This document shows positions 4,509 to 31,061 of a stretch of 60,439 bases of DNA, in pieces. The position numbers were made by a program, and so were the translations under genes. The notes under the pieces were generated by a model that was not told where the DNA came from, did no database searches, and worked only from the letters and a program-made list of their open reading frames with translations. Every line of letters starts with the position of its first letter. Position 1 is the first letter of the stretch. Source of the DNA: Euryarchaeota archaeon UBA121 (GTDB taxonomy: Archaea > Thermoplasmatota > Poseidoniia > Poseidoniales > Thalassarchaeaceae); the NCBI GenBank assembly GCA_002499865.1, contig DANL01000060.1, positions 1-60,439 on the forward strand. Direction: 5' to 3'.

Positions 4509-5198
4509 GTGGAAACCGTACAGACGCTTTCTGAGTCATTCAATGACTCATCATGGGGCTTCGCACTGAACATAGTCACTGTTCTGCTAATGTACGGCCC
4601 CTTCTACCTGGCCAACACTGGTGCAATGCTTTTCGGTAAGTGGATTCCAGATAAGTTCGGCTTCGATAGTATCGTAATAGATCAAGGAAGGACTCTGGGC
4701 GATGGATTCAGGGCCCTAGGGGACGGAAAGACGTGGAATGGATTCTTTGGAGGGGCTTTCTTTAGCGGTACCCTGACTCTTCTGACACACCATCTGTGGG
4801 GAGGGAGAAACGATGCTGAATCCAGACCTTTCATTGATCCGACCCTCTGGGCGACGTCCGATGACTGGTTTTGGATAGGTGGAGAATGGGGCGCGGCCTT
4901 TACCATGGGATTTGTACTCGGGATGGCCTGTATGGCTGGCGATTTGGTTGGATCCTACTTCAAGAGGAGGAAGGGCCACAAAAGAGAGGGCAATGAAAGC
5001 TCACAGGCACCTATCCTGGATACTCTGACTTTCGCAGTTGCCATATTTATCACCGCTTTCCTGCTTTTCAAAGGACAAATCATCACCAGTCCGGATTTAG
5101 TGGATGAGATAATTGTACTACTGATCTTGACCCCAGTAATTCACAGAGCGACTAATATTCTTGGATTCAAGCTTGGATTGAAGTCAGTTCCATACTGA
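4509..5198 (+). CDS. carS: CDP-archaeol synthase (CDP-2,3-bis-O-geranylgeranyl-sn-glycerol synthase)
   Basis: Matches the remembered CarS/DUF46 pattern: LGDGKTWNGFFGG, GDLVGSYFKRRKG, and the C-terminal TPVIHRATNILGFKLGLKSVPY. GTG start. Confidence 0.8.
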   Translation: METVQTLSESFNDSSWGFALNIVTVLLMYGPFYLANTGAMLFGKWIPDKFGFDSIVIDQGRTLGDGFRALGDGKTWNGFFGGAFFSGTLTLLTHHLWGGRNDAESRPFIDPTLWATSDDWFWIGGEWGAAFTMGFVLGMACMAGDLVGSYFKRRKGHKREGNESSQAPILDTLTFAVAIFITAFLLFKGQIITSPDLVDEIIVLLILTPVIHRATNILGFKLGLKSVPY

Positions 5199-5254
5199 AA
5201 ACAGCTGAACAGTAGAGTTATGCCCCGCGTGCCATGCGACCAATCATGACAGCC

Positions 5255-6523: not shown

Positions 6524-6614
6524 CTTTTTGATGATATATTTCTCTCTACTCTCTGAGAACGGTTATAACAGAAAGTAAAATCGCGACGTCGCTAGCCTTC
6601 AGGCTAAGCAGACG

Positions 6615-9600
6615 GTGAAACCAATGAACGTAAGAGAAGATGCGAAAGCAGACGGGAACTCCCTGAAGGAACTCGTGCCAGTTTCGGCCATATTGGTCGC
6701 CTTAGTGGCACTTTTCCTAGGGTCGGAGGCTTTAGCAAATGGAACAATGGAGAATGACGGGTACCTGCGAATCCTGACCCTCCCACTGGCGGCCGCACTC
6801 GCGGCGTCTTTCGGAAGGGTCCTTTCTGTTTCAGAACTCGGGATACCAAGCCATTTCAAGACTGGAGCGTTATCGATTCTTTTCATAGCAGTTTCTGCCA
6901 TCCCTGAGCTTGCTCCAGAGTTACTGGAAATTGACACCATCGTTACCTTCACATTCACATCTGTCGGAATAGCCACAATGATGCTGGTTAATTCAAACAG
7001 GAGGGAGGAGGCTAACTTACTACTAGTGGCAGTGGTGGGATTCTTCCTATCTGCATCCTTGGCCGCATCTACAGGTTTCGGATCAGAATCATGGGCCGGG
7101 ACAGATGAGGAAATGATTGACGCAGTCAGATCTTCCATGGCTTCAATTTTATTTGCATTCTGGGCTTCATCAATATCCCTCGGCTTGATGGTCGTACTCG
7201 GTATGAGGGGGACATTAGACACGGCTGGAGATGGGAAGCTATTCTCCGGAATCCCCTCATTCGACATTCAAAGTGACTCATCGAGAAAGATGATGTCAGT
7301 TTTGGCACTCGTATTTACGGTCCAGTTTATTCCGCTTGTATGGCTATGCTCTATATCCGGAGACACCATTGTAGTAGATGGAGAGGTCGTCTCAAATGCT
7401 CTGTTAAAGTACTCCGAACACCAATATCTAGGCTCGGTATGGGCCCTAATGACGGCCTTGGTGATATTCGTATGGGCGTTCTTCCGATCTGAGAGATGGC
7501 AGGTTATGGCCGCTTTGGTAGCCGTAAACTGGATTCTTTATTCAGCGGCAAGATTAGTCGAAATCGGTAATCCACTGGGCATTGAAGTACTTCCGGCAAG
7601 CTCCGGAGACAGTACTTCCGCGGCTGCTTGGTTCTTCCTGATCTTCTGGTCTAATGTTGCGGCCTACATCCTTTCAATCAGAGGATACTTCGGAGATACG
7701 GCTCCAGTTAGGGAGCATAGCGCTATGAGGGCATGGTGGAATGCTAACTACTACGGAATAATGATCTCTCTGGCTTTGTTTGTCTCTCTAGCAATCAGGA
7801 CCGGTTGGAACGTACTTCCAGCAATGAACGCCACAGGGACTCAGTTGTGGGACATGACTGGAGGTTCTGATCCATGGTACATGAAGAGGGTAATCGATTA
7901 TGTCGTAGCTGAGAGGAGCCACTTCATCTTCGACTCCGATCGCTCATACCCCATGGGTGTGATCAATCCTAGGCCACCACTTTTCTCGTGGTCCCTTGCT
8001 CTTGGTGGACTGGGCCTTAACTGGCTCACAGGATCGTCTCAGGACCAGATGGTCTGGTGGAGCGTATCTGCCATGCCAGCAATTTACGGCGCCCTAATCG
8101 TACTTCCACTGGCTGGAATTGCAAGGAGGGTACACAGTGATCTCGCTGGAGTAGTCACCGCGTGGCTTATCGCCCTAATGCCAGGTCACATCGGCCACTC
8201 CACATTCGCATTAGCTGATCACGACTCTTTCGCACTGCTGTTCATCTCGATGGCGTTCTACTTCTGGGTAAGGGCCGTCGAGGGAATAAGAGATGAAAGA
8301 CTATTCAACGAGACCAGTAGAAATCCATTGTACCTGATAGCTGGAATAAGGGAGATGTGGATGAGGAATCCAATGGTGATGTCCTGTGCCACATTATCTG
8401 GTATTTCCTTCGCTACCGTAGCATTGGGGTGGAAGGGATTCGTGTATGGTCCAGGAATCTTATTCCTAGCTTTCTCCGTACAAGCATTCCTCAATCTCTT
8501 CAGAGGCAGGGATAGCCTTCCAATCACGGCGGCAGCATTGCAGATGCTTCTCACTGCATTCGTGATTCCGTTGCCTTTCTACATGTGGCCTGGATTGGAT
8601 CTTCTTTTCGACCCCAGCGGTTTCCAACCAATGTTCTACATCATCGGATTCACATTTGCTTTGGGTTGGGTGACCTGTTCATTCAGGGACAAGCCATGGC
8701 TTCTCGTAGTTGGCAGCGGAACTGCTCTCTTCGGTGCTATCCTGCTCTCACTTTACGTCTTACAGGCACTAAACTATTACAATGGATGGGACATTCTATT
8801 CACAGGAGGATTCTACTTCTCCAAGAATAAAATATTCGGCACCATCGGTGAAGCACAGGCCCCCAGTAGAGGGGTTCTATTCGCTTCTTATGGTCCGGTA
8901 GTTTCCATAATTGCCATTTCCTGTGCAGTATATCTAATCTGGAGAGGAGCTAGAAAGGACCGCCAAAGCCACCTCCTACTAGGATCATGGACAATAGTCG
9001 CTGCTTACATGGCTTGGAGCGCTGGTAGATTCATCTTCAACGCGACGCCTGCAATGGCAGTTGTCGGCGGACTCGGGATTGCAATGCTCTGGAAAGCAGC
9101 AAATCCCGCAGATTTCCTCAAGGAATATCGCAGAGCTGGGATTGGCAACCCCTCCGCTAGGAGGAGATCGACATTCACGGCATCCAGAAGGCATCCTGGA
9201 ATACCTGCTCTGATGATGGTTTTCCTGCTAGTTGCAAGTCAGCACGCAACTTACGGCATAGACTCTGGAATTCCTCGTGGAGAAGAGGCGGCTACCGACG
9301 TCGACCAGGCTATCTACGAAATAGCCCCAGACTTCCTACGTTGGTCCATTGGAGATTTCTCAATACTTCAGGACGAAGAATATGACCCTGACTCAGGGAT
9401 GCTAAGGTACATGGGGACCTTCGGCCCAGGTTTCAATGGAGCAGATTGGAATACGGCGTATCAATGGCTTTCTGAACAGGATACAGAAGTCGGCTTCAGT
9501 GAGAGGCCTGCCTTTGTCTCATGGTGGGACTATGGTTTCCAGGCTCTCACACAGGGACAGCACCCAACTGTCGCTGATAACTTCCAGTCGGGAATTCCCC

Positions 9601-15600: not shown

Positions 15601-16139
15601 ATGCTACTGTAGCTGACAAAGCAGGAAACTCTTACCCAGAGATAGAAATCAATGTTGCCATATCCAATCCAGTGATCTCTATCACATCCCAGCAACTTCT
15701 CTCGGGAGGAGACAATGCAGTTTCTAACAGAGTCAACTCCTGGGTCGTTACTGTTGCCAATGAGGGGCTTGTCGATGCAGAGGATGTTGAGCTAAATGTA
15801 ATACTCTGCAATGACTTGACTTGCCAAAGTGAGGTAATAATGGATACCGAGCTAGGTGATGTTCCAGCCAACTCAGTAGTGAACTTCGACATCAGACTGG
15901 ACCTAGACGGGATCGATCCTGGTAACTACTACCTTAACTTGGAGATCAATGAATCTTCGGTAGAAGGCGAAGTGGTACCATTCGAACCAAATCAGGGAGG
16001 GAGTGTCAATCTAGTAGTTTCTTCACCTGCAGTGGAGTCTGACTCTAGTTGGATTGGCTACATCCTAGGGGGGCTAATCATTGCCGCACTGGCAATGCTG
16101 ACAAGACCCCGCTCAAGAAGGCCAAACGCTCCATTCTGA
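6615..16139 (+). CDS. aglB: giant dolichyl-phosphooligosaccharide-protein glycotransferase (AglB/STT3) fusion protein, 3174 aa
   Basis: Single uninterrupted ORF (GTG at 6615, ATG at 6624). STT3 motifs are DPWY (7869-7880), DHD (8217-8225) and WWDYG (9522-9536), set in a multi-TM region. The C-terminal half is beta-sandwich repeats ending in TM WIGYILGGLIIAALAMLT plus RPRSRRPNAPF. Confidence 0.85.
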   Translation: MKPMNVREDAKADGNSLKELVPVSAILVALVALFLGSEALANGTMENDGYLRILTLPLAAALAASFGRVLSVSELGIPSHFKTGALSILFIAVSAIPELAPELLEIDTIVTFTFTSVGIATMMLVNSNRREEANLLLVAVVGFFLSASLAASTGFGSESWAGTDEEMIDAVRSSMASILFAFWASSISLGLMVVLGMRGTLDTAGDGKLFSGIPSFDIQSDSSRKMMSVLALVFTVQFIPLVWLCSISGDTIVVDGEVVSNALLKYSEHQYLGSVWALMTALVIFVWAFFRSERWQVMAALVAVNWILYSAARLVEIGNPLGIEVLPASSGDSTSAAAWFFLIFWSNVAAYILSIRGYFGDTAPVREHSAMRAWWNANYYGIMISLALFVSLAIRTGWNVLPAMNATGTQLWDMTGGSDPWYMKRVIDYVVAERSHFIFDSDRSYPMGVINPRPPLFSWSLALGGLGLNWLTGSSQDQMVWWSVSAMPAIYGALIVLPLAGIARRVHSDLAGVVTAWLIALMPGHIGHSTFALADHDSFALLFISMAFYFWVRAVEGIRDERLFNETSRNPLYLIAGIREMWMRNPMVMSCATLSGISFATVALGWKGFVYGPGILFLAFSVQAFLNLFRGRDSLPITAAALQMLLTAFVIPLPFYMWPGLDLLFDPSGFQPMFYIIGFTFALGWVTCSFRDKPWLLVVGSGTALFGAILLSLYVLQALNYYNGWDILFTGGFYFSKNKIFGTIGEAQAPSRGVLFASYGPVVSIIAISCAVYLIWRGARKDRQSHLLLGSWTIVAAYMAWSAGRFIFNATPAMAVVGGLGIAMLWKAANPADFLKEYRRAGIGNPSARRRSTFTASRRHPGIPALMMVFLLVASQHATYGIDSGIPRGEEAATDVDQAIYEIAPDFLRWSIGDFSILQDEEYDPDSGMLRYMGTFGPGFNGADWNTAYQWLSEQDTEVGFSERPAFVSWWDYGFQALTQGQHPTVADNFQSGIPHSGGMLLSQGQEDTLAMFIATLTQGDMRSNSGEMTSEYQSVLLENMEQFQLDEFQTIMSIGVGDSQLVIQRSMQVVANDGSVDLLRGFQLDENGIPSSDESWAVYFDTEPYLEESNESTAKSSFDEARGRASEYDQETTHYMIGNYRYTSDLIEDFDDVSTGLHRQNSKLAMARAFLVQAFSMEELVDLYHQITTEVFYDVQDYEAGLGVTTERNNDIRYFAVDNRLYPLGGSYYADYNYHRGQTTGIFHAPTGLSGLDLDDYISTLYQTQRGVDGPIILRTADEYEQEYLNDVVRQQSGAAADASEMIQMVDIDYNHQDAFFDTMVARTYVGYGSSSLGLPGDASQPAPHFYMYGTPGSYLEPGIPMPGAMMNHMVLANWYELPCELNQDGEKIDDNCNDPTIGSANTQVKILKYYSGATLSGTVELEGVGPVPNARLLIERDAFSGEEVADEITGMVTDRDPRTYWIPIGTTDADENGMFEFTVPAGKIKVTAFFGEPNLEQARSTMMTGTYSMTEILTEENEESRELNPVTGILGNVSGSTWLTEEIVNISAFDGHSNGEEVIEISLSVESAQATGQLVWASIEEYDGTAITGSTVELVPQWDEIDISPYYASTSDGEVSGEGLSFNGIGQVEFTGQGTVQTTSISTITDFTGNYTQEIKHNHTLVGEGLFEGRGSLSGTINFNSDEDSQISECGDNDTMPENLSFCELSSGALLIDGSVNATGRYTSNGSTEFTQRLSHSSLVGSGIFETDTSEELDHYGTINGTGKFSGDGIFSGPMVQAGTFHLRDMIPGIYSVTAILDDGTRVELDDSFTVPSAINQVQKIDIQGSLISGKLINSSGEVVDGYAALLDDSSEFEDATADCADSGHAPCRMYPNEMGDYGVGPLPPGNYSVAIDVDQDGFFEIIEEFPFDSEIYANVLVPSPIPEMFDLNFEMINEGSNVPDLNVSLSKADGDSMPVSAIYSVEDGEYQIELTPGEWIVDYALSDSKQVWEEFEVSSDMSMQFEFVTSVEVTGTVYYEENSSASFNPDDGKVIGADTVISFVWEGFSTTAMTNESGQFTVTLPEGAVVDATVEGLIAGLVNGTKFTVSTGMEDIVMVATPGTNVFGLVSVSRANNFYSSDLIGWQQLTVTAQNENYDVTWRKSVDNLGKFQMILPDGEWTFEIVDSDIAYSPVTKSIDSENFSVEMILSPPNGTLSLEMFMDDSGDLNSSNGTPVSYDFEIVPSSQAGMGKNVTYDGSEWISEGLAQVSLEPGSYSVIVSISDATEGDLFGTMLSSQVVPFDIPLQGGSVDRIAAFLPEWRVSVSLTNQFGGVLSNQDFKLINTETGWTQTHTTDANGSWADHIIQGDWILSVESLINSEGATETLRAHIVSSPETASTDLSLSTIEAASVSISLTETLGAPLEGKRIVAASDEGLGEVDLTPTNSSGISEIQLFPGNWIMSMENEEDGIMWILESNDVVLSSGDNGQLNFTADRFAEVSGNVFWDLNDNGVYNIGEGINNATFAILPGTCDENSSSDSTVVQNSDNSGAWSSFEAVGGDYCLEVSAQGFSDISQEIELGNSSLEIDSMMMAELVQVGGQISFIDADQFSSVSDTLLLELIPTSDYVRDTISPVKTIVDGDWNGNWTASVEPGEWIIRAFSEELGLVAMSMVKAEVIDGGYSDMDLATGGWALIETQWFDYEGVSMTLADIDKPELNINLGAGISWIANLDEEGSIRVLLPSGIIDVSSEFTTLQRGLNMTYSGGQAIGVEASQETPAITVSHSRIPFRDLSLNVIGSVGGDVGHDGGISDLLVTKDNESMGFNPVEFTLSADYLGHEPLDTFSAQATVPGTDGSEWQVEFHNGSGVWNTSMSFDLGLDNSLSTSDIHVKVTPPNQSVAHSLTQGHSIILSFFTSGGYSEEINVKVRIPQIHDFSVVSLDPLYGVSPGEEIQIPLQIRNDGNGDDRYVFDFDDSELPDGWERTGSTSHTLPPFTTTTHSINVIAPDNATGEYTIYATVADKAGNSYPEIEINVAISNPVISITSQQLLSGGDNAVSNRVNSWVVTVANEGLVDAEDVELNVILCNDLTCQSEVIMDTELGDVPANSVVNFDIRLDLDGIDPGNYYLNLEINESSVEGEVVPFEPNQGGSVNLVVSSPAVESDSSWIGYILGGLIIAALAMLTRPRSRRPNAPF
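7869..9536 (+). other. STT3 catalytic core of the AglB fusion (first-loop DPWY motif to the WWDYG motif)
   Basis: Motif positions verified in frame with the 6615 start: D419-P-W-Y, D535-H-D, W970-W-D-Y-G. Confidence 0.8.
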
Positions 16140-16181
16140 ACACACTGGTATTTATGTGGCAGTTCCACAGGAACCAATAGA

Positions 16182-17417: not shown

Positions 17418-17504
17418 TGGACGTCACATACAATTGAGCGATAATGGATTCTGATGACCTAACAATCTTGTTTCCTCTAACATTATATCCGCTCCCGATA
17501 CCCC

Positions 17505-20500: not shown

Positions 20501-21734
20501 TGGCGTGATAGATGAATGCGTTCCCGCGGAGCTCACCCTCACTATAGACAATTCAAACAGCGCTCCCTTCATCAGTATCTCCGAACCCAAGGAGTCAGAC
20601 AGAATGTCTGTTTCCGAAGATTCAGTTTTCGAGGGAGTAGCCAGGGATAATGACAATGAGGTAACTAGGGTCGATATCGAAGTTCTCGATACAGCAAACG
20701 GAATGATTGAAGTTCACTCTGAATCGGTCATCGAGTTCGATTCAAATGGCGCATTCAGCTCAATATGGGATTCAAGATCACTAAGGCACAATTCCGAATA
20801 CCAGATTAGGATGAGATCATATGACGGATTTGACTATAGCGAATGGAAGTCAGTCAATATCATCGCAGACAATCCTCCAGATGCAGGAAATAGACAACCC
20901 GTTTTTGATCAGTCAGGATGGGTAGAATCAGTAACACTATACTGCGAAGAAAACTCACAATCAGCTGATAGATGTACTACTTTCGAAATCAATTTACTGG
21001 ATTTCTTCGCAGACCCAGATCCTAACCAGGAGCTCATCCTATCAGTTTATGATGACGAAGAAGTAGCCTCAGATGACGAATATCCAGTAGTGATATCAGT
21101 ATCTGCAGATGGTGTCGCCAGGTATAACCCAACATCGATGGCCTTCTTCGATCCAGAGATATCTGGATGGACAATTAATGATGTAGTATTTGTCGCATCA
21201 GACCAATTCGGGTCAAAGGCAAACTCAATACCAATGAGCATCGAAGTCATAGCAATAGATTTCGAGGTTGATGTACCTCAGGAAACAAGTATTTCAGAAG
21301 ATGAAACGGCTATCTTCTCTGGCATCGGCCTTCCGGGGAGAACTGTCACGGCTACAATTGGAGGTATTCCAGTAAACAATACTGTTGTTTCAGACGACTC
21401 AACATGGACTATGGGGATACCTGGATCTCGAATTTCTAGCTCTGCTACTCCTCAGTTCATGTATGGGGGTCTCGAATATGACGGTTCAAAGATCACTGTA
21501 AGCGACCCAGACTCATCTAATACCTCATTCTTGGTAATCATCGTGATTATTGTTATTCTAGGAATGGCAGGTTTTGCGTACTTCTTTATCGAATTTGAAG
21601 ACGACTCCGAGCCTGAGAATAACTACAACAAGAAAGAGAGGCCAGATGGGGGAGAAAGCAGGTTTGTCAAGGATGACGACCATCCGGGATGGCTTTGGGA
21701 TACAGAAAAGGAAGAATGGGTCGAAGAAAAGTAG
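17505..21734 (+). CDS. giant surface protein: parallel beta-helix (PbH1-like) repeats plus Ig-like domains and a C-terminal TM anchor
   Basis: Signal peptide; repeated NNTI/DNEL/GNEI beta-helix turns over about aa 280-560; Cys-flanked CSDGIDNDGDLLMDADDTDCD motif; TM FLVIIVIIVILGMAGFAYFFI with an acidic tail. GTG at 17505 or ATG at 17511. Confidence 0.75.
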   Translation: MAMARRDRLSSTILVMLMLTSVFIALVGPASPVAASNETTSGTITGTEYWQGNHVLTGDVVISSGAKLVIQPSTNVIFPNGTHLDARGSLCIGVSSCGASGNANSAQKITFSWEEPENSSAQGECNGISQGQFEITITDPSCYEGLIIRDSIDLSQSGIRHTTLDGAWGIPHFVDNQNGFKYAALVLDGASPTLTEMEFIDINSSSVLTTGLAQPEFIGGQYTVGNDDESGVDGPAVQIYSSGTPITPLIMSSPDLIGSDNGCGNNAGGKPTVWVEDAFIEIDDAEIGVGDYGISLRYSSGSVTNSEISVNCNGIDIYSLKSVGQIDYYNTITGNEIVTNDRTPITVYGGAHAFIRDNELSGAGSGSGIAVFSSYAEITNNDIGPIGGWNGLWMYGSFDVIAENNTIFDTNREAIIAGEYGSNAPAPSASRAFLANNTISSSGQGDCTSNIHFNGQFTCPAVMAYRSGLTMYDNEINSGGESDGIRSIGALLDIRRNTWNAAGSGAVIKHYDSGYAGDQQYGSLAFFSENTWNGVGTTYNITKSSVTVQSESIPSPPTGQFPVILSWPDQEAWPANGFQNGIIPTDVQECSNCDNLTPRNFPLALSMDNNSTVMTFAGLANLDRSSISIQTQPTPYAVQVRRAELVKFQALVNGERVPGASILIEDALGNDMYDIDTLSDGYTPWFALPSDFHLDFRGLGGGDNPDGFADDEFEDSCSDGIDNDGDLLMDADDTDCDYTAGTRELSLYRFTAYKFGFGLDSGQFTLDDSSYQGTANLLNLAPSVSVTQDQGHSFRKVVNITGNAHDGILASFYPSDEMAQWDQKGFVHSIEVRDPFTSGWSDAQLAIDSSGSQYGEVTSTNHPFKEWYYELDMSQMAEGDYVFQFRAFDGIDYSPISTITIKLNSQAPTVSVSSPSPFSTHSDDTVTFEGAAYDYYGCPSQCGKDITEIYFQIVGPNFQVVTPVSGGTAWSWTWDFSGQPRVVADYTFKIWASDSDFCNGVIDECVPAELTLTIDNSNSAPFISISEPKESDRMSVSEDSVFEGVARDNDNEVTRVDIEVLDTANGMIEVHSESVIEFDSNGAFSSIWDSRSLRHNSEYQIRMRSYDGFDYSEWKSVNIIADNPPDAGNRQPVFDQSGWVESVTLYCEENSQSADRCTTFEINLLDFFADPDPNQELILSVYDDEEVASDDEYPVVISVSADGVARYNPTSMAFFDPEISGWTINDVVFVASDQFGSKANSIPMSIEVIAIDFEVDVPQETSISEDETAIFSGIGLPGRTVTATIGGIPVNNTVVSDDSTWTMGIPGSRISSSATPQFMYGGLEYDGSKITVSDPDSSNTSFLVIIVIIVILGMAGFAYFFIEFEDDSEPENNYNKKERPDGGESRFVKDDDHPGWLWDTEKEEWVEEK

Positions 21735-21804
21735 CATTTCCCTTGAATAGCCCCTAAGCTTCCATCACGAACATTATTGAATAGAAGATGTTGCTAACAT
21801 AATT

Positions 21805-24333
21805 ATGCCAGTCACACCCGTGCCCAAGCCCGGAGTCCAAGAGAGGATACTTCTTCACCTCAGGGACTATGTGGACCATGCCGATAAAGTCGAAGTTCCC
21901 TTTGCACTTTCCCAGATGGGTATTGCAAATGCAGTTTCAATTGCCAGGTCCAATGTCCCAAGGGCCATTTCTGGCCTGAGGGAACAGGGTTATCTGATCG
22001 AGAAACAAGCACATGTCACCGGGGTTTCAAGGAAAAGGAAGGCATACTTCCTAACCGAAGAGGGAGCTAAGCTAGCCGATGATATCTGGTCCAAGGTCGG
22101 GATGCAAGTAGTCCGCGTGATTGGAAGGGATGGTAGAGCATCAAATATGGAGTTATCACAGGCTCTAGAGGGCACAGAATTGCCTCTCAGGCACGTTGAT
22201 GTTATTCGATATCTGGATGATTCTGGAACCATAGATCTTTCAGTTTTATCTGCCGACTTGATTGAAAGAGACTTATCAAAACATATTGAGAAGCAATTGG
22301 TAACCTCACTGAGCGACCTACCAAGGACTAGGAGATTTTACGGAAGAGAAATGGAACTAGAAAATATGGTTAATCTCCTGGAGCACCAGTCAGGGTCAAT
22401 ACTTGTTCCCGGGATAGCAGGCATAGGTAAAACCGCACTTTCCGCCAAGCTAATTGAGAGCTTTACACATAGAAGAAATCTTCTTTATCACAGATGTCAA
22501 GATTGGGAAGGGGCGAGGGCATTCTTAGAGGCTATTTCAGAATGGCTATCTGCAATGGGGAGCGATGACCTATCAGACTATCTTGCATCTACGCCCGTTC
22601 CTCAGCCCCAAATGGCAGTCAACTTAATCTCCGATGGACTAGAATCTTCACCATCTCTAATTGTAATAGATGACCTCCATAAGGTTGGAGATGAGACACT
22701 AATTTCGGTACTAAGGTCACTTTCATTGAAAATACCAGAGCTAGAGAATGTTGGACTGGTGATGTTCTCCCGATCATTCAGGATGGTAGTTCCAGAATCT
22801 GACTCTTCCGGGAGGATAGTAACTCTGGTAATGCCACTCGATGGGCTCGATCAGGAAGCTAGTAGGAAAATACTTACTACAATGCAGGATATTGAGATGC
22901 CTCAATTCCTGCATATTCATAGCTTATCTAGAGGTCACCCACTAGTACTCGAGCTGATAAATAGGGGTAGTGTAGGAGGTACATTCCACGAAACTCTAGA
23001 GGCATTCGTAGAGAAGGAAATTTTCAGTAGACTTTCCGGTGCTGAAAAGAGATTATTAGGGGCTATAGCGGTATTCAGAGAACCTATGCCCCTCGAAGCA
23101 ATATCTGCAATCGACATGGAAACAGATCTTTTGGACGATCTAGTGGAAAAAGGCCTGGCCAGACAAGCAGATAGCGAAAACTATGATGTTCACGATTTAG
23201 TCAGGGAATTCCTAACTAGATCAATGGAAGACTCACTAAAGCAATCGTTACATGCCAATGCGGTTGAATGGTACAGGACTAGGAAGGATGACCCATCAGA
23301 AAGTATAGAGCATATTCACCACCTTCATGAATCAGGAGATATTGAGGGCCTTGCTTCGGCATTATCCGAGGAAGGTCACAAGCTAGTCAAGGCCGGACAC
23401 ATCGAACTCCTCGGTATTCTCAGGGTCCTCGAGGCCAGGCTATTCGGACCTAGGACCAGATTTGTAATTCATGAACTCACGGGAGACATACTTTCTGTCC
23501 AAGGGAAGTGGGATGAGGCCGAGGGACAATACGACATGGCGCTTCCTATAGCCGTTAAACACAAACTAACCACCCCTCTCGCAAGGATTTACTCATCCAG
23601 GGCAGATTTAGCGGTTAAGAAGGGAGAAATGGATACTGCACTCTCCTTACACAAGAAAGCGTTGGAGATGCAAATAAAACTCAGAGATGCACAGGGCGCC
23701 GCAAGATCATACAACAATATGGGGTATATCTTCAGACGTCAACGAGATAACAAGAGAGCATTAGAAGTCTATGGAAATGTGGAAGAACTATTGAATTCCG
23801 AAGACTCATCAGACCTAACAGAGGCAAGAATCAGACTGGCTTCGGCTTTTCTTGAGATGGGTGAGATGGATAGGGCACGTGATCATGCCATGACGGCTCA
23901 CGATGAAACGGCGCAGAACAATCAAGAAAAGCTACATGCTAGGTCAAGGGCTGTTCTAGGTAGATACTATGCTAGGATAAAAGATAATGATTTGGCCATG
24001 CATCATTATTCCGGTGCTTTAGAAATATTATCGGATCAATCTGACCCTAGAAGCGCGGTGGAAGTAGAGATGCTACTCGGACAAGTCCTGAGTGATGCAG
24101 GAAGATCAGATGAAGCCGCACAGCACTATCTCGATGCTTTATCGATCGCAGAGGCAAACGACTTCAGGATGATGCAAGGAGAGATTCTCTCCAGACTGGG
24201 GGAAGTGGAGAGTAATAGATCACAGAGGATGGACTACCTACAGAGGTCCTTGGTAGTATTCAGAGAGCTTGGTGCGGTCGACAGGATGAGGGATGTTCAG
24301 AACTCTGTCCACAGGGTAGTAATGGGCCATTAA
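21805..24333 (+). CDS. wHTH - STAND/AAA_16-type P-loop NTPase - TPR signal-transduction regulator
   Basis: N-terminal winged-helix-like segment (ALSQMGIANAVSIARSNVPRAISGLREQGYLIE). Walker A GIAGIGKT (22411-22434), Walker B LIVIDDLH (about 22660-22680). C-terminal about 280 aa is TPR-like (A/L/Y/G periodicity). Confidence 0.75.
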   Translation: MPVTPVPKPGVQERILLHLRDYVDHADKVEVPFALSQMGIANAVSIARSNVPRAISGLREQGYLIEKQAHVTGVSRKRKAYFLTEEGAKLADDIWSKVGMQVVRVIGRDGRASNMELSQALEGTELPLRHVDVIRYLDDSGTIDLSVLSADLIERDLSKHIEKQLVTSLSDLPRTRRFYGREMELENMVNLLEHQSGSILVPGIAGIGKTALSAKLIESFTHRRNLLYHRCQDWEGARAFLEAISEWLSAMGSDDLSDYLASTPVPQPQMAVNLISDGLESSPSLIVIDDLHKVGDETLISVLRSLSLKIPELENVGLVMFSRSFRMVVPESDSSGRIVTLVMPLDGLDQEASRKILTTMQDIEMPQFLHIHSLSRGHPLVLELINRGSVGGTFHETLEAFVEKEIFSRLSGAEKRLLGAIAVFREPMPLEAISAIDMETDLLDDLVEKGLARQADSENYDVHDLVREFLTRSMEDSLKQSLHANAVEWYRTRKDDPSESIEHIHHLHESGDIEGLASALSEEGHKLVKAGHIELLGILRVLEARLFGPRTRFVIHELTGDILSVQGKWDEAEGQYDMALPIAVKHKLTTPLARIYSSRADLAVKKGEMDTALSLHKKALEMQIKLRDAQGAARSYNNMGYIFRRQRDNKRALEVYGNVEELLNSEDSSDLTEARIRLASAFLEMGEMDRARDHAMTAHDETAQNNQEKLHARSRAVLGRYYARIKDNDLAMHHYSGALEILSDQSDPRSAVEVEMLLGQVLSDAGRSDEAAQHYLDALSIAEANDFRMMQGEILSRLGEVESNRSQRMDYLQRSLVVFRELGAVDRMRDVQNSVHRVVMGH

Positions 24334-24334
24334 T

Positions 24335-25132
24335 TCAGGCCGAAATCTTCTCCGAATCAACTTGGCCTATCCAGTTGCTAAACTCTGGTCCGTCTTGTTT
24401 AGATATTGACAAGCTCCCCTTGAAATTATCACAAATCTCCATCAGAACCTCACTCTCTGCTATATGGGGAAGATTGTTACTCTCAGAAAGATGGCACAGC
24501 ACGATACTACTCAGCTCGGGATGCACAATCTCACTAAGTGCTGAAGCGGTCTGTGAATTGGAAAGATGCCCTCCTCTGCCAGATATCCTCCTTTTCAGAG
24601 AATCTGGATAGTTTCCCCTCATTAGACGGGCATGGTCGTAGTTGGACTCAATGGAAATATGGTCGCATTTCCTGAGGTGAGAAGACAACTCAGCGGTGAC
24701 CTCACCCAAATCAGTAACTATGGCCGCCCTTCCGCCTTTATCATCACAAGCTATTACTGCTACATTATCAGCATCATCATGAGGCACGGGAATAGTCAGC
24801 AAACTAATGTCAACACCAGCATCAATTCTTTCCAGCTCGGAGAATACCAAGAGGTCATCCGAGTCCCCCCATTGCATCCTTTTAGCAGTCTCTGCATTAC
24901 TGATTAGCCTCGCTCCCCACTTCTTTGCAGCTCTCTTGGCAGACTTAGAATGGTCAGAGTGATGATGAGTAACAAGTATGGAGTCTATATCTGTTGGATT
25001 CACTGATAGTTTATCTAATCTAGACTCTGTCTTCTTTAATGAAAACCCACAATCCACCAGAACATTAGATTCGCCTGTAGACAAGAGAACAGAATTCCCT
25101 CTGCTTCCACTTCCTAGGTGAGTAATCTTCAT
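24335..25132 (-). CDS. metallo-beta-lactamase fold hydrolase (PhnP/YycJ-like, COG1235-type)
   Basis: MKITHLGSGSRGNSVLL start and HxHxDH motif (VTHHHSDHS). ATG at 25132 preferred over the track's TTG at 25177. Confidence 0.8.
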   Translation of the reverse strand: MKITHLGSGSRGNSVLLSTGESNVLVDCGFSLKKTESRLDKLSVNPTDIDSILVTHHHSDHSKSAKRAAKKWGARLISNAETAKRMQWGDSDDLLVFSELERIDAGVDISLLTIPVPHDDADNVAVIACDDKGGRAAIVTDLGEVTAELSSHLRKCDHISIESNYDHARLMRGNYPDSLKRRISGRGGHLSNSQTASALSEIVHPELSSIVLCHLSESNNLPHIAESEVLMEICDNFKGSLSISKQDGPEFSNWIGQVDSEKISA

Positions 25133-25322
25133 CCCAGTGACTCCGAGCTTACGGGGATAACGACGACCTTTGAACAAATCCTATGATAATTATCCCTCAA
25201 GCTCATTTATTGATTAATCGGCCCTTTCGGAACCATATATTTTGAGTCAATGTCCGAACGACGCTCCATCACCATCATAAGTCAACCGAGGACGTTGAAG
25301 GCTACCTAGATGGGGCTTTAAC

Positions 25323-28300
25323 ATGAGGAGGAAGCAGACAGCGGCCTTTATGGTACTACTTTTGCTCAGTAGCCTCGCTTTCGTTTCTCAAACTAGGCCG
25401 CAGTCCCCGGTCGACTCTACAAATCCTACAGATGCGGAAGGAGGAGCTCCTCCAGCCACAGATGCAGACGAAGATAGAATCCCCGATCAGTATGAGGCGA
25501 TATATGGGGAGGACATAGTTATCGATACTCCCGAAGGGAGCTTTGAGGTACTTGGTTTGGATATGAACAATGGTACTGATAATATGTCTGATCATGATAG
25601 AGACGGAGCTGTAGCCCTGTTGGAGTACTGTTGGCCGTATACTCTCGACAAATGCTTTACTGACAGACTTTCCCTAACAGGCAAGCCTCCTGAATTGACA
25701 GAATCAGGAAATAGGGAATATCTGGACCCCACCTCGTCTGATACAGATGGAGACGGACTCCCAGATGGATATGAGATTCATATGTGCACTGAAGGGGGAC
25801 TGGGTTACCTCAATGCGACTAATGCATGGACCTGCCTCTGGTTCGATCCACTAGATCCATCTGATAGTACTGAAGATATTGACAGGTGTGATGATTTTAG
25901 TTTTGGCTGTGGAGACGGCTTTGATGTCAATAGAGACGGGCATATCGATGTTACCGAGAGATACTCAAACTCAGAAGAATACTCTTTCGGAACTCCTGAA
26001 AACTGGATTACAGAGAGAGACGGTCTTTGGTGTTCAGGGACAATTCCAGGAATGAGTGAAAATGCCTGTCAGGAATCAATTGTAAGGCCGACAGGGGACG
26101 ATGGGTGGCTAGGTACCGATCCTACACGCTCAGATTCTGACTACTACTCCTGGTCTGATCTATTGGCAACTGGACTTATCATTCCTGGTGATGGAATTCC
26201 AGATGGGTGGGAAGCACACTACGGACTTGATCCAAGAAACGCTAGTGATGCAATATTGGATTCTGATAACGATGGCTGGGATGCAGATAGGGACGGTTAC
26301 GTGATTCCAGATACTTCTACCGCTACTGCCGCATGGGGCGAGGCGTTCAGTAATTACGAAGAGTACATGGTTTACTATGACGAAGGATCTTGGGTAAAAC
26401 CAGGAATCAGAGGAACTGCAGTAACCAGTCATGATGGAACTGTACTAACTTTCGATCAATCTACACAGACCCAATTAGTTGATGCGGCAGTACACACGAT
26501 GATCAAAGATATTGAACAACAGAGAATAATTGTCGGTTCCAAATATGGAGTAACTACACTAGATCCATTTGGCGAAATATCCTCTCTTCACAATCTCCGA
26601 CCTGGTGTAGAGATGACCTCGATGGTCAGGTGGTCTCCCGGAGGCAACTCAGACTTCTTAGTTATTGGAACGAACCTTGGGATTCATTGCGTTTCAATGG
26701 AAAACGGCCTCCCGATAATGTCATCCCTTTCTGAATCTGAAATGGGTCACGTGGTATCGATGATAGAACTAGACACGGGTAGCGACAATCTGGATCTAAT
26801 GGTTTTCGGGCATCAGAAGGCATGGACCGTCAGCGTATCTGATGAAGGCTCAGGAGGGGATTGTTGGAGCGGAGGAAGATCCGTAAGTGTCGGACAAGAA
26901 ATCCTCAGCTCTCCAATGACAGAGGTCCTTTCCGACTCGGAGGTATCTGCCAATGATGCCATCCAAGTTCCAATACAAGGAAGGGGCCCTCTGCTGATGG
27001 TAGCCACTGATTCGGGACTGATCGCATGGAACACTACAGACGGAGTTACATCTGCAGGCGAACCATGGTGGGTCTTCGACATCGAAGACGCAGAGACATT
27101 CGTAAGAATGGCCGATCTACTAAACGAATCCAAATCCGCGGTCGTCAACGTATTGGAGCCAGCGGGACCAATTCTAGATAATGGGGATCTGGGAGAAGTT
27201 ACAGGAGTTTGGATGGGAACAGCAGGAGGGCTACACCTGATTGACCTATCTATTTTCATGCAGATGCCAAGATCCTCCATAAGTAACGATAGAATGTTCA
27301 ATTCAGATCGTTGGACCGAAGGTGCGAATGATATCAGATCAGTTTTGGCAATTGACGGAATGGTTGTTCTAGGTTCTAGGGACGGAACATGGTGTCTCGA
27401 AGGAGGACACACAGGCGTCTTGGGCCCCTACATCAATCAAACCAGAATGCCGGGACTAGTCACCAACCTAATTTCAATGGAAAACGAAGATGAAGATTGG
27501 ATTTTCTCAGGATCTTCACCTGGTAGATTCATGAATATCATGCCAATAGACCCATTATCGGACGACTCAGATTTTGATGGAATGCCCGACGGCTGGGAAT
27601 ATATTCACGGTTTAGATCCAACAGACCCCTTTGATAGGGAGAGGGATGCCGATGCTGATGGAGTCAGCTTCCCCTTGATTGATGGGACTATATTTATCCG
27701 TGAGTGGAGTAATTTGGAGGAGTTTAGATACGTAAACTCTTCACAATTCGGTACAAATGGAACTGATCCAAGAAATATTGACTCTGATGGAGATGGCCTT
27801 ACCGATGGAGAAGAGTACTGGGGTTGGTTTTTGGACTCAACATCATTTTCATGCCATTATCTGAATGATGACTATGTTTGTGACGACTCATCATCACAAT
27901 CGGAGACCGTGCATCTCGAAGGATGGCTCGGCTCAGGCGCAGGAGGAGGTACAGACGGCCCAACAGACCCCACCAATCCAGATACCGATGGAGACGGAAT
28001 GCCCGATGGATGGGAGATCGAGAATAGGAGATGGATTGGAGACATATACACTGGAGGAAATCTTTGGACACTAGATCCAAGAGATCCAAACGATGCAGAA
28101 GAAGATGCTGATGGAGACGGACTGTCGAATCTATGTGAGTACAAGTGGGGAGAGATAATTGACGATGTCATTAGAGAAGGCCTGCCCTCCCACGGAGAGT
28201 CAAATGAGTCGGCACTGTCGTGGGTGTCAACAGATCCGAACAATGTAGACTCTGATGGGGATACTCTTCCTGATGGCTGGGAGGCGAGATATACTTGCTC

Positions 28301-31061
28301 TTGGAATAAGGATAACAAGGGAATCAATCCACTGAATGGGTCAGATGCACTTAACAACCCCGACGGTGATGGTTATGATATCAACATGGACGGTGTACTA
28401 TCAATGGATGAGCAACTGGTAAATTGGCTCGAGTACCATCTGAAAGATCAGATAATATACAACGATGCCACAGAGTCTGGAATGGAATTCCCTAATGGAT
28501 TCGCCACAAACCTGTCACACTCTTCATGGCAGGGACTCGCTCCAGGCTCCTTTGGCGAGTACACAAGTACGGCATACCTCAGCTTAGTCAATGGAACTAC
28601 TGTGGAAGACGTCGGCTCTGGAAATCCACTTTCTTCTGACTCAGACAGAGATGGAATGCCAGATGGCTGGGAATACTATCATTCACGATGGAGTTTGTTC
28701 GATGAAAAATGGACTCTAAACCCAGTAGATGAAAGGGATCAAGATGGCGATCCCGATGGAGATGGAATGAATAACTGGGAAGAATACAACTCAATAGATG
28801 GAAATCTCAGTGAGACGGACTCCCTTGTTACATCACCACAATTCTACCTGCTGAGCGTAGGGGGGGAGCTACTTCCCACTCCATGGCTTTCTGCAGAATC
28901 AACATACTCTTTCGGATACTTCCTGTCCGATGATCAGAAGAACCTAACCGGACTCACTGCCGACCCAAATAATCCTGACACAGACGGAGATGGCCTGTTA
29001 GATGGAATTGAATTAATTTTCACAAGGTGGAACTCAACCGATTCTGTATGGACATTAAATCCCCTGGTGGCTGGTGACGGATATTATGATTCGGATTTAG
29101 ACGGAATCACCGATCAAGTCGAACTCAATCTTACCAATAATAATCCTGCCAATGGGGGACTCTCTCCTCCAGATGCCCCTAGGATGTGGGAAGAGGCTGA
29201 CTCGATAGATCCTTCAGAGGCCAATAACAGAGTCTTCAGGATTCTGTTCGGAAAGGAAGGAAAGGCGCAACTAGCCATGGAGCAATACCAAGATTGGCTC
29301 TCAGGTAGCCCTGCAAAACCACTCCTATCGGCCCTTCTGGGAATATCAGATCCAAATGACGTGGATACCGATAGAGATGGGATGAGTGATGGGTATGAGT
29401 ATTGGTTCACACAGTGGAATCTAGAGCAAAACATATGGGAAATGAACCCATTAACAGGATCCGATGTTTCTAGGGACTCGGACGACGACTCCTACGACTG
29501 CGATGGAAATGGTCAGATTTCAGACTCAGAGTCGTTTGATAACTTAGCAGAATTTGAGTCTAGGATTTATGGAAAAAAGATAGCCGTGGATACAATTCCA
29601 AATGAGACTGGTCTGGTTTCATATGGTGCTGATGCAATTAATGCATTTATGGGAGAGGAGGGGATGTCATATGATGCTGCGTTTGGACAGCTTTATGATA
29701 TGTTCAGAAGTAAGAGTCTTGAATCTTCAGATAGAATGGGGCTAATCAATTCTCTAGAGCCAGACAATTTCAACATCAGCTTAGCAGGAGTGAGCGATCC
29801 GACGGATGATGATTCTGATCTCGATGGGATGCCCGATGGTTGGGAATTTTGCTATTCGGTATATGGCGAATTCCTGCCTGTTAATGATTTCAGATGGTCT
29901 CTAAATCCAATAAATCCATTGGACATAAACTATGATCCCGATTCTGATGGATGGTTCGATAGGGAAATCACCGATGTTCCCGCACCTCAGGGAACATGGG
30001 AGTCAAGACAGTTCTCGGAGTACGAGCAGGAAGGACAGATTCCTCAAGGAGTCCAGTCTCTATTGTTCTCCAATTTGATGGAGTACAACAACGGCACCCA
30101 CCCATTAGACGATGATAGCGATGACGATTCCAGCGTGATGAAGCCTGTTTTCACCAATGGCGTTGTCACGTCCTATGTCAGGGACTCCAATCTATCTGAT
30201 GGAAGAGAGGTGTTCAAGTACGGAACTAACCCACTAGACAACGACACCGATGGAGATATGATGCCGGACTTCTACGAGTATTACAGGGGTTGGAACGAGA
30301 CAAATGATAACTGGTCTTCTAGACTGCAAATTTCAGTTGTTTGGCATCAGGTTACTTCTGTGGTTTGGAAACCAGTACAGGTTTCTAATGGATTGATAAC
30401 TAGGCCAGTTCTAGAATGGGCATGGTTCACTCATGACCCAACCGATCCCTCTGACGCCGGCCAAGATGCAGATAATGATGGTGCTTGGGATTGCTCTGGG
30501 GGGAGTTGCATTTACCAGCCCTACAACAACTTCCAGGAATACTTTGGAGTGGTCAATGCTTCGATGTCCTCTCCTTCTTTGGTCAGAGCCTCAAATCTTG
30601 TTGACTGTTCAGGAGAGCCAGTATCTGAGTGGTGGCAATTAAGGGAGAGCCTCTTAGGAACCTGCTCAGGTAGCTCGTCCATATCTACTAATTATTTCAG
30701 GATGAATAAAATAAATGATAATGATAGACTCTATGCATTGGTGATCAATGACTACGATTTGGACTATGAGAATGTCGACAGTAGTAATGATCTAACTTCG
30801 CTCAACGGCGAGTGGACGGATACATTCAACAGGATTGCAGGAGACCAGTATCATCTTCCAAATATTTTCCTCGGAGAGTACGTATATGGTTGGTGGATAC
30901 TCGACATCGACGGCGATCAGATTGCAGACGGTACAGACCCTACCAATTGGGATACCGATGGAGACTGGTTAAATGATCATTTTGAAATTGAGGACGATTT
31001 ACTAGATGGGATTAGGGGGAACAGTGGCTCTCCGATAAGGTACGATGACAGGTCAACCTAG
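25323..31061 (+). CDS. giant secreted protein (1912 aa) with more than 20 thrombospondin type-3-like DxDxDG calcium-binding repeats and a central putative beta-propeller; no membrane anchor
   Basis: Signal peptide MRRKQTAAFMVLLLLSSLAFVSQ. Repeats include DTDGDGLPDGYE, DSDFDGMPDGWE, DTDGDGMPDGWE and DSDRDGMPDGWE. No hydrophobic C-terminus (ends ...IRYDDRST). Confidence 0.8.
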   Translation: MRRKQTAAFMVLLLLSSLAFVSQTRPQSPVDSTNPTDAEGGAPPATDADEDRIPDQYEAIYGEDIVIDTPEGSFEVLGLDMNNGTDNMSDHDRDGAVALLEYCWPYTLDKCFTDRLSLTGKPPELTESGNREYLDPTSSDTDGDGLPDGYEIHMCTEGGLGYLNATNAWTCLWFDPLDPSDSTEDIDRCDDFSFGCGDGFDVNRDGHIDVTERYSNSEEYSFGTPENWITERDGLWCSGTIPGMSENACQESIVRPTGDDGWLGTDPTRSDSDYYSWSDLLATGLIIPGDGIPDGWEAHYGLDPRNASDAILDSDNDGWDADRDGYVIPDTSTATAAWGEAFSNYEEYMVYYDEGSWVKPGIRGTAVTSHDGTVLTFDQSTQTQLVDAAVHTMIKDIEQQRIIVGSKYGVTTLDPFGEISSLHNLRPGVEMTSMVRWSPGGNSDFLVIGTNLGIHCVSMENGLPIMSSLSESEMGHVVSMIELDTGSDNLDLMVFGHQKAWTVSVSDEGSGGDCWSGGRSVSVGQEILSSPMTEVLSDSEVSANDAIQVPIQGRGPLLMVATDSGLIAWNTTDGVTSAGEPWWVFDIEDAETFVRMADLLNESKSAVVNVLEPAGPILDNGDLGEVTGVWMGTAGGLHLIDLSIFMQMPRSSISNDRMFNSDRWTEGANDIRSVLAIDGMVVLGSRDGTWCLEGGHTGVLGPYINQTRMPGLVTNLISMENEDEDWIFSGSSPGRFMNIMPIDPLSDDSDFDGMPDGWEYIHGLDPTDPFDRERDADADGVSFPLIDGTIFIREWSNLEEFRYVNSSQFGTNGTDPRNIDSDGDGLTDGEEYWGWFLDSTSFSCHYLNDDYVCDDSSSQSETVHLEGWLGSGAGGGTDGPTDPTNPDTDGDGMPDGWEIENRRWIGDIYTGGNLWTLDPRDPNDAEEDADGDGLSNLCEYKWGEIIDDVIREGLPSHGESNESALSWVSTDPNNVDSDGDTLPDGWEARYTCSWNKDNKGINPLNGSDALNNPDGDGYDINMDGVLSMDEQLVNWLEYHLKDQIIYNDATESGMEFPNGFATNLSHSSWQGLAPGSFGEYTSTAYLSLVNGTTVEDVGSGNPLSSDSDRDGMPDGWEYYHSRWSLFDEKWTLNPVDERDQDGDPDGDGMNNWEEYNSIDGNLSETDSLVTSPQFYLLSVGGELLPTPWLSAESTYSFGYFLSDDQKNLTGLTADPNNPDTDGDGLLDGIELIFTRWNSTDSVWTLNPLVAGDGYYDSDLDGITDQVELNLTNNNPANGGLSPPDAPRMWEEADSIDPSEANNRVFRILFGKEGKAQLAMEQYQDWLSGSPAKPLLSALLGISDPNDVDTDRDGMSDGYEYWFTQWNLEQNIWEMNPLTGSDVSRDSDDDSYDCDGNGQISDSESFDNLAEFESRIYGKKIAVDTIPNETGLVSYGADAINAFMGEEGMSYDAAFGQLYDMFRSKSLESSDRMGLINSLEPDNFNISLAGVSDPTDDDSDLDGMPDGWEFCYSVYGEFLPVNDFRWSLNPINPLDINYDPDSDGWFDREITDVPAPQGTWESRQFSEYEQEGQIPQGVQSLLFSNLMEYNNGTHPLDDDSDDDSSVMKPVFTNGVVTSYVRDSNLSDGREVFKYGTNPLDNDTDGDMMPDFYEYYRGWNETNDNWSSRLQISVVWHQVTSVVWKPVQVSNGLITRPVLEWAWFTHDPTDPSDAGQDADNDGAWDCSGGSCIYQPYNNFQEYFGVVNASMSSPSLVRASNLVDCSGEPVSEWWQLRESLLGTCSGSSSISTNYFRMNKINDNDRLYALVINDYDLDYENVDSSNDLTSLNGEWTDTFNRIAGDQYHLPNIFLGEYVYGWWILDIDGDQIADGTDPTNWDTDGDWLNDHFEIEDDLLDGIRGNSGSPIRYDDRST
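27561..30986 (+). repeat. array of divergent protein-level tandem modules: DxDxDG(M/L)PDGWE - W-rich linker - W(T/S)LNP - DxDxDG
   Basis: Module starts read at 27561, 27981, 28248, 28638, 28977, 29364 and about 29808. The last DxDxDG pair ends at 30986. Confidence 0.7.

Follow-up and report, generated by a model that had tools for sequence, protein, structure and literature searches.

Contig DANL01000060.1 of the archaeon UBA121 (60,439 nt; this whole stretch is referred to as the window) contains between positions 6615 and 31061 a block of 24,447 bp that begins with a gene for a giant AglB oligosaccharyltransferase. The aglB gene is followed by genes for a membrane-anchored S8 subtilase, a surface protein with a beta-helix head, a STAND regulator, a metallo-beta-lactamase (MBL)-fold hydrolase, and a giant secreted protein with TSP3-type calcium-binding repeats. 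Comparison with related genomes revealed that the block is a core-genome cell-surface locus of the Marine Group II (MGII) archaea and not a mobile island. It probably represents an AglB cell-envelope locus of the order Poseidoniales, which consists of at least three adjacent transcription units and has been held together across the order. The invariant unit comprises the four co-directional genes from aglB to the STAND gene and three genes upstream of them, which code for a 583-aa protein, CarS, and PurD; the MBL and calcium-repeat genes lie outside this unit.

One genome per species (GTDB) was scanned with an AglB alignment, which retrieved 337 relatives, and the best 80 loci were examined by tblastn with the proteins of the window. 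All locus counts cover only those loci whose contig reaches far enough. The S8 gene follows aglB in 53 of 53 loci, and the beta-helix and STAND genes were found in 45 of 45 and 43 of 43 loci, respectively. These four genes retain the same order, the same strand, and a near-constant spacing down to an AglB identity of 35%, with median gaps of 45 nt (aglB to S8), 90 nt (S8 to beta-helix), and 60 nt (beta-helix to STAND). The three upstream genes are equally constant (Table 1). Three distant metagenome contigs with an AglB identity of 38–53% showed the identical order of the 583-aa gene (minus strand), CarS, purD, AglB, S8, beta-helix, STAND, MBL (minus strand), and the TSP3 giant, and also nearly equal protein lengths. 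Outside the block the flank is not conserved: the upstream Pirin gene is kept in 4 of 53 loci only, and synteny decays at about the genus level. The S8 protein was detected in metagenome-assembled genomes (MAGs) of the Thalassarchaeaceae/Poseidoniales (MGII, MGIIb) and on marine contigs, including those of Tara Oceans. Within the otherwise fixed block, a local inversion is indicated at the most divergent locus (L095), where the CarS match at 7738–8361 has the reverse strand orientation of every other locus.

Since the S8, beta-helix, and STAND genes adjoin aglB in all of these loci, the genes do co-occur and no scattering of their orthologues was observed in the comparison of gene neighbourhoods that a preliminary description of the sequence had proposed. 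That description had also termed the block an island. This does not hold, as the G + C content of 0.45–0.49 equals that of the flanks, no compositional break, tRNA, or mobility gene was found, the neighbours are housekeeping genes, and none of the related genomes examined lacks the block. As for the six genes that it had treated as one set, the four co-directional genes are invariant, but the MBL gene and the calcium-repeat giant are present in 38 of 43 loci and absent from the remaining five, which represent the most divergent lineages. The proteins of the block differ in their rate of evolution, with median identities of 72% for STAND (the highest value), 62% for PurD, 60% for S8, 58% for the beta-helix protein, and 50% for AglB. 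The 583-aa protein evolves fast (median identity 37%), yet its gene matches the four core genes in synteny. It contains 8 sequons compared to 4.4 expected.

The aglB gene encodes an STT3-family oligosaccharyltransferase with all catalytic motifs that could be checked, and glycan transfer is predicted. The STT3 domain (PF02516; E 4e-11; 43.5 bits versus a gathering cutoff of 24.5) spans aa 417–819, and CarboxypepD_reg and CARDB domains were also matched. Ahead of the STT3 core, the N-terminus contains approximately 350 residues with about ten extra predicted transmembrane (TM) helices (to nt ~7700). The core contains the motifs DPWY (extracellular loop EL1), DHD, and TIGE (TIXE-type, EL5), and the WWDYG of the extracellular domain is located at aa 970–974 (nt 9522–9536). 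A profile of the MGII AglB proteins aligned to the AglB of Archaeoglobus fulgidus (3waj) from TM1 onward, with GGSDPWY opposite GGNDPWY, ADHD opposite NDHH (DHD versus DHH), and WWDYG aligned. The catalytic acidic residues, which are the counterparts of D47 and D161/H163 in A. fulgidus AglB, are invariant in 9–15 divergent orthologues, and TIGE (T743, I744, G745, E746; identified by pattern match only) and WWDYG are invariant in nine. In the sequence following WWDYG (GQEDTLAMFIATL) no clear DxxK or MxxI motif, of the kind that faces the +2 Ser/Thr pocket, was seen; the structural model, with a pLDDT of 60, gave no reliable structural alignment. This AlphaFold2 model of aa 1–1200 (pLDDT 60, 15-sequence alignment) is fit for a helix count and a coarse fold match only. 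When it was compared to the PDB by using Foldseek, the top 17 matches were all catalytic subunits of the STT3, AglB, or PglB type (E 2e-7 to 2e-4), a result that is supportive only because of the low confidence of the model.

Beyond the canonical extracellular domain, AglB continues for about 1750 aa of beta-sandwich domains (CarboxypepD_reg, CARDB). Segment-wise Pfam scans of this extension and of the N-terminal 400 aa revealed beta-sandwich families only and no enzyme domain. The protein closes with a C-terminal TM helix (16047–16103) and an invariant RRxAPF tail. This second TM helix gives the extracellular part a membrane tether at each end. Conservation peaks in the core (0.73), amounts to 0.61–0.64 in the first part of the extension, and is lower but continuous elsewhere. 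Full-length homologues have 3150–3300 aa down to an identity of 38%, and the doubly anchored AglB of 3171 aa is the standard form across the order. The protein remained below the cutoff of the NCBIfam model TIGR04154 for archaeosortase A-associated archaeo_STT3 (169.5 versus 450 bits), and no PGF-CTERM-like motif was found at the C-termini of the anchored proteins of the block. An exhaustive search with the core additionally retrieved a second tier of relatives with 27–38% identity, most of which have 2000–2775 aa and lack the N-terminal extension. Among those with at least 2000 aa, WWDxG is present in 83 of 83 and the C-terminal TM helix in 81 of 83. These second-tier giants form at least 83 clusters at 50% identity, and all named ones belong to MAGs of uncultured Thermoplasmata. 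At one locus (L096) the AglB gene follows those of an 8356-aa protein and of a 1077-aa protein with immunoglobulin (Ig) repeats.

The product of the second gene contains a Peptidase_S8 domain (PF00082; E 1e-42) with the catalytic triad in order (VDTG115, HGT153, GTS328). It has one N-terminal TM helix (type II) and no propeptide. The triad is kept in 115 and the TM helix in 118 of 118 homologues. The protein scored below the cutoff of the model TIGR03921 for mycosins of type VII secretion (112.5 versus 278.75 bits). The window encodes another large surface subtilase (1579 aa; S8, CARDB, and an Ig-like domain) 21 kb downstream (52162–56901), between the genes of GAPDH and adenylate kinase.

The third protein matched the Pfam families Beta_helix and Big_7 and, according to its hydropathy, has a signal peptide and a C-terminal TM helix. 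An AlphaFold2 model (pLDDT 81) displayed a right-handed beta-helix head (~aa 35–560), an acidic Cys-rich linker, and at least five Ig-like domains. Of the traits of an S-layer anchor, the beta-helix and the C-terminal TM helix are thus present, but the stalk is Ig-like and not a coiled coil. The cytoplasmic tail ends with HPGW(L/K)WD..(E/K)EWVPD (21681–21731), a motif that is invariant across MGII though the preceding linker varies and that is absent elsewhere in the window, which suggests a conserved cytoplasmic partner. Homologues of the protein are restricted to MGII, and all are annotated as hypothetical. In the preliminary description it had been called sequon-rich; it contains, however, 13 N-x-S/T sites compared to 14.0 expected from composition, and an enrichment was found instead in AglB (39 versus 23 expected) and in the TSP3 giant (25 versus 18). 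Foldseek searches with the model yielded generic tandem arrays of Ig/FN3 domains with low TM-scores and were uninformative on an enzymatic or structural role of the head.

The fourth protein of the co-directional series matched AAA_16, TPR_12, and TPR_MalT, and carries the Walker A motif GIAGIGKT at aa 203 and the Walker B motif LIVIDD at aa 285. Its best match in the PDB was 6mfv (E 7e-29), the TPR-sensor STAND protein PH0952 of Pyrococcus horikoshii (PMC6468293).

Upstream regions from approximately 50 non-identical lineages were aligned, and the transcription architecture was deduced from their sequences. In the window, the region ahead of aglB contains a TATA-like TTATAA (6563–6568), a conserved GC-rich block, the palindrome AGCCTTCAGGCT (6594–6605), and GGTGA (6614–6618). 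Across the order, a strongly conserved GGTTATAACA is located about 58 nt upstream of aglB, and a Shine-Dalgarno (SD)-like GGTGA is present in 46 of 53 lineages. The preceding purD gene ends with TAG, which is followed by a T5 run (6525–6529). Owing to these conserved elements, the SD sequence, and the T5 run behind purD, aglB seems to be transcribed from a promoter of its own, with a short leader. A palindrome of the form AGCC-N3-4-GGCT is situated at the predicted transcription start of aglB in 40 of 53 lineages. It is rare, with 103 occurrences in 2 Mb of loci, and 77 of these are accounted for by positions upstream of aglB (62) or of the beta-helix promoter (15). A longer version, CGAGCC-TAC/TTC-GGCTCG, occurs 7–8 nt upstream of the TATA box of the beta-helix gene in 11 of 50 lineages (among others at the loci L040, L012, L028, and L065) and was not found there in the lineage of the window itself. 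The palindrome could act as an operator, or else form a 5' stem-loop or the hairpin of a terminator. A scan of the whole window against Rfam matched no family.

For the S8 gene no order-wide promoter motif was detected; an SD-like sequence is present in 22 of 55 lineages and T5 runs occur in 3 of 52 gaps between aglB and S8, and the S8 gene is probably co-transcribed with aglB as the sole operon-like pair of the block. The beta-helix gene is preceded across the order by the motif CCCTATGATTAAATC, which is centred about 26 nt before the ATG (ATTATAT in the window). An AT-rich window was found at this gene in 39 of 50 lineages, an SD-like sequence in only 7 of 50, and T5 runs in 16 of 53 gaps between S8 and beta-helix, so that this gene is a candidate for an own archaeal TATA promoter and a leaderless mRNA. 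The STAND gene is preceded by a conserved cgaaCATTCTTGA (AACATTATTGAAT in the window), which is located 24–35 nt before the ATG. The single transcription unit that had been suggested for positions 6615–24333 is therefore unlikely because of these conserved promoter-like elements inside it, at the beta-helix and STAND genes, the T-runs, and the specificity of the palindrome. At least three adjacent transcription units, which are possibly co-regulated, would fit the sequences better than one. The only expression data found are those of Damashek et al. (PMC9723583), in which aglB of a MAG of the MGIIb genus O1 was transcribed in situ and enriched when the genus was active (log2 fold change 2.05, adjusted p 0.06). 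In Table S5 of that study, the genes 305 (aglB), 307, 308, and 310 of SIMO Bin 19-2 pass the expression filter, with a joint upward trend of 305 and 307 and no change in 308 (PMC9723583). Judged by their numbers, which lie two, three, and five positions beyond aglB, the genes 307, 308, and 310 may be those of the beta-helix protein, STAND, and the TSP3 giant.

The features of the block are compiled in Table 1. All six genes were recovered as open reading frames (ORFs) at the coordinates and on the strands first assigned to them (6615–16139, 16182–17417, 17505–21734, and 21805–24333 on the plus strand, 24335–25177 on the minus strand, and 25323–31061 on the plus strand), and the gaps of 42, 87, and 70 nt among the first four were borne out. 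The starts of two genes were refined, as public gene calls and upstream conservation agree on them: aglB starts at ATG 6624 (3171 aa) with the SD sequence GGTGA ahead, instead of GTG 6615 (an ORF of 3174 aa), and the beta-helix gene at ATG 17511 (1407 aa), which extends the second gap to 93 nt. The MBL gene has 265 aa in public gene calls. The original domain assignments (STT3/AglB, S8, beta-helix/Ig, STAND, MBL, and a TSP3-type calcium-repeat giant) were likewise supported by Pfam, and the predicted anchoring of the S8 and beta-helix proteins and the anchorless state of the 1912-aa protein by hydropathy.

Table 1. Genes and candidate control elements of the aglB block in the window.
Feature	Position	Strand	Evidence
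583-aa acidic protein with signal peptide and C-terminal TM anchor, no family match; outermost member of the conserved block	2671..4422	-	Orthologue in 42/42 loci with room
CarS (CDP-archaeol synthase) and purD, housekeeping neighbours	4509..6523	+	CarS in 45/45, purD in 46/46 loci
Putative aglB promoter and leader	6563..6618	+	TATA-like element, GC-rich block, palindrome, Shine-Dalgarno
Giant AglB oligosaccharyltransferase, 3171 aa	6624..16139	+	STT3 domain, motifs, fold match
Type II membrane-anchored S8 subtilase, 411 aa	16182..17417	+	Pfam, triad, TM helix
TATA-like ATTATAT, candidate beta-helix promoter	17482..17488	+	Order-wide motif at same position
Beta-helix/Ig surface protein, 1407 aa	17511..21734	+	Pfam, hydropathy, AlphaFold2 model
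Conserved element AACATTATTGAAT (consensus cgaaCATTCTTGA), candidate promoter or operator of STAND gene	21770..21782	+	Upstream alignment
Predicted HTH-NTPase(NOD)-TPR STAND regulator, 842 aa	21805..24333	+	Pfam, PDB match, Walker motifs
MBL-fold hydrolase, 265 aa, HxHxDH motif, convergent with STAND	24335..25132	-	Lactamase_B; 38/43 loci
Secreted anchorless acidic protein, 1912 aa, 12 TSP3-type DxDxDG calcium-binding motifs	25323..31061	+	Repeats, hydropathy

The two genes downstream of STAND code for a protein with a Lactamase_B domain and for the 1912-aa protein, which has a signal peptide, no TM anchor, and TSP3 repeats that are sub-threshold in Pfam. The TSP3 giant follows the MBL gene wherever the latter occurs. 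In the most divergent lineages other genes replace both of them after STAND. At two loci (L088, 28060–29459; L095, 28022–29457) these are two minus-strand genes, which encode a 156-aa protein whose hydrophobic N-terminal segment is pilin-like and a protein of 309–321 aa; neither of the two has a homologue in the window. Long antisense ORFs of 161–222 aa within aglB and the TSP3 gene (6599–7267, 26813–27412, and 27872–28357, all on the minus strand) are most likely non-coding shadows of these large genes. Further downstream, two domains, those of a pyroglutamyl peptidase (Peptidase_C15) and of a NUDIX hydrolase, are combined in a single ORF (31977–32963).

According to the explanation regarded as probable, that of a core-genome envelope locus, AglB would N-glycosylate secreted envelope proteins at the membrane, and its long arm might place or scaffold the enzyme within the surface layer. 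The co-transcribed S8 protease may trim or release envelope proteins, and the beta-helix protein would belong constitutively to the envelope and bind glycans or particles or act on them. The STAND protein could bind a ligand via its TPR sensor and then switch on transcription, with the AGCC-N3-4-GGCT palindrome as candidate operator at the start of aglB and, in some lineages, upstream of the beta-helix promoter. The MBL hydrolase and the calcium-repeat giant would be later, lineage-dependent neighbours. Taken together, the genes of the block are inferred to make, trim, and regulate a glycoprotein envelope, and their universal single-copy presence and slow evolution favour a constitutive envelope role over a variable adhesion island. 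Several observations weigh against this explanation. PurD and CarS, which have no obvious role in envelope glycosylation, are equally syntenic, and adjacency alone therefore is no proof of shared function. The second-tier giant AglBs of other Thermoplasmata sit without S8, beta-helix, or STAND neighbours, and these genomes may harbour a further aglB besides that of the block. As its sequons are not enriched, the beta-helix protein is no obvious preferred substrate of AglB. The match of the STAND protein to HTH_Crp_2 (aa 14–68), a helix-turn-helix (HTH) family, is weak (E 1.6e-4; 22 bits, below the gathering score of 27). RNAalifold found no consensus structure in 32 aglB leaders, and no RNA hairpin could be called because the 4-bp stem of the palindrome is too weak. 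The candidate promoters and operator are derived solely from sequence conservation.

Some of these points would also agree with a conserved neighbourhood that lacks functional coupling, in which independent core genes (for a global regulator, a surface protein, a protease, and a housekeeping oligosaccharyltransferase) remain adjacent only through low rearrangement in this chromosomal region or shared expression constraints. The equal synteny of purD, CarS, and the 583-aa gene is compatible with this alternative, as are the own promoters that aglB, beta-helix, and STAND each appear to have, the unrelated neighbourhoods of the giant AglBs outside MGII, and the far higher conservation of STAND compared to its neighbours, as expected of a regulator with wider targets. 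It is nevertheless considered unlikely, since synteny outside the block decays at about the genus level but the block itself persists down to an AglB identity of 35%, the lengths of the intergenic gaps are conserved, the S8 gene often has an SD sequence with no terminator after aglB, the same rare palindrome marks the control regions of aglB and beta-helix, and STAND is the only one of the four products that is not a membrane or surface protein. A single regulated operon that forms, together with the calcium-repeat giant, an inducible module for particle or cell adhesion, with adhesins matured by dedicated glycosylation and proteolysis, is unlikely as well. The co-directional genes with their short conserved gaps and the ligand-sensing STAND regulator next door would suit such a module, and the Ig stalk and beta-helix head are adhesin-like, with RTX adhesin extender repeats among the top fold matches; the TSP3 giant also weakly resembles the adhesion/cohesion proteins CglD and MtsD of Myxococcus. 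The fold matches have low TM-scores and concern generic Ig domains only, however, and the beta-helix protein is not sequon-rich. Promoter-like elements precede the beta-helix and STAND genes, the start of the former is of the leaderless type, and T-runs occur in 16 of 53 gaps. Moreover, the proteins are universal, single-copy, and as slow-evolving as PurD, unlike typical variable adhesins, and both the MBL gene and the TSP3 giant are missing in 5 of 43 lineages.

A more far-reaching explanation, which is deemed quite improbable, is that the four genes form an MGII-specific unit for envelope building and outside-in signalling and that the doubly anchored AglBs of 2000–3300 aa constitute an undescribed class of oligosaccharyltransferases in uncultured Thermoplasmata. 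AglB and the subtilase would then assemble and trim a glycoprotein layer anchored by the beta-helix protein, the TPR sensor of the adjacent STAND protein would read the cytoplasmic tail of the latter, and STAND would act on the palindromes at the control regions of aglB and beta-helix. Finally, a STAND NTPase with a TPR sensor that adjoins an MBL-fold hydrolase, together with faint matches of the latter to the Avs1a and Apyc1 models, might point to an antiviral defence system of the Avs/AVAST type that merely lies beside aglB. This has next to no probability: the possibility was rejected because PADLOC yielded weak and generic matches only for STAND, MBL, and S8 (Avs1a with 13.6 bits), which is nothing meaningful, and no Avs model on the NTPase. 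In addition, the putative effector of the STAND protein is an HTH and neither a nuclease nor a protease, the protein occurs universally at a fixed locus with about 72% identity order-wide, unlike patchy defence genes, and the MBL gene is convergent with STAND and missing in some lineages that keep STAND.

Marine Group II is among the most abundant archaea of the surface ocean. To our knowledge the group has no cultured representative, and its cell envelope is essentially unknown. MGII cells meet particles, polymers, and viruses at their surface, and the invariant locus provides concrete, testable candidates for the construction and regulation of this surface. With its two anchors, the giant AglB would rank among the largest STT3-family enzymes and raises the structural question of why an oligosaccharyltransferase should have an extracellular arm of 1750 aa. 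The preliminary description had known of no system with this composition, which agrees with the searchable literature on MGII and Poseidoniales, where no description of the giant AglB or of the cluster was found and aglB transcription is mentioned in passing (PMC9723583). Every component is of a known kind, but the doubly anchored 3171-aa AglB with its 10-TM extension and the invariant four-gene arrangement appear to be undescribed.

Compared to archaeal AglB proteins with a known structure, such as AglB-L of A. fulgidus (PDB 3WAJ, 5GMY, and 7E9S; STT3/PglB, GT-C fold), the MGII AglB shares the STT3 domain, GGSDPWY, DHD, TIGE (TIXE-type), and WWDYG, although it resembles solved AglBs only distantly in sequence (E 1e-6 to 4e-11). 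Described AglBs have about 600–1000 aa, whereas the MGII protein has 3171 aa and adds the approximately ten N-terminal TM helices, the 1750 aa of beta-sandwich domains, and the second, C-terminal anchor. In the N-glycosylation clusters of Haloferax and Methanococcus, agl glycosyltransferase genes are located beside aglB. The MGII locus resembles them in that aglB belongs to a conserved cluster with cell-surface genes, but no gene for a glycosyltransferase, a flippase, or sugar nucleotides adjoins it; protease, surface-protein, and regulator genes take their place.

A surface protease is also known from Staphylothermus, where STABLE sits on the tetrabrachion S-layer. Like this enzyme and the mycosins, the MGII subtilase has an S8 domain with an intact triad, is surface-tethered, and is encoded beside envelope proteins; it differs by its N-terminal type II anchor and the lack of a propeptide, and no link to a secretion system was seen. 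The SlaB protein of Sulfolobus combines a beta-helix with a C-terminal TM anchor. With SlaB and the RTX/Ig-repeat adhesins (PDB 6XI1), the MGII surface protein has in common the signal peptide, the right-handed beta-helix, the tandem Ig-like domains, and the C-terminal TM anchor. Its modules are ordered differently, however, with a distal head, an Ig stalk, no coiled coil, and the conserved cytoplasmic tail motif, and it has no sequence homology outside MGII. The STAND protein resembles those of the MalT clade (Escherichia coli MalT, PH0952) by its NOD NTPase with Walker A and B motifs, the C-terminal TPR sensor, and the MalT-like TPR match, but carries a putative N-terminal DNA-binding domain of the winged-helix type (a weak match), whereas MalT has a C-terminal HTH of the LuxR type. 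Finally, the calcium-repeat giant is, like CglD and MtsD of Myxococcus, a large, secreted, acidic protein with clustered DxDxDG calcium-binding repeats. In this comparison only the short repeats match (31 bits versus a cutoff of 400), and the MGII protein is no lipoprotein and has a different central domain with a faint beta-propeller signal.

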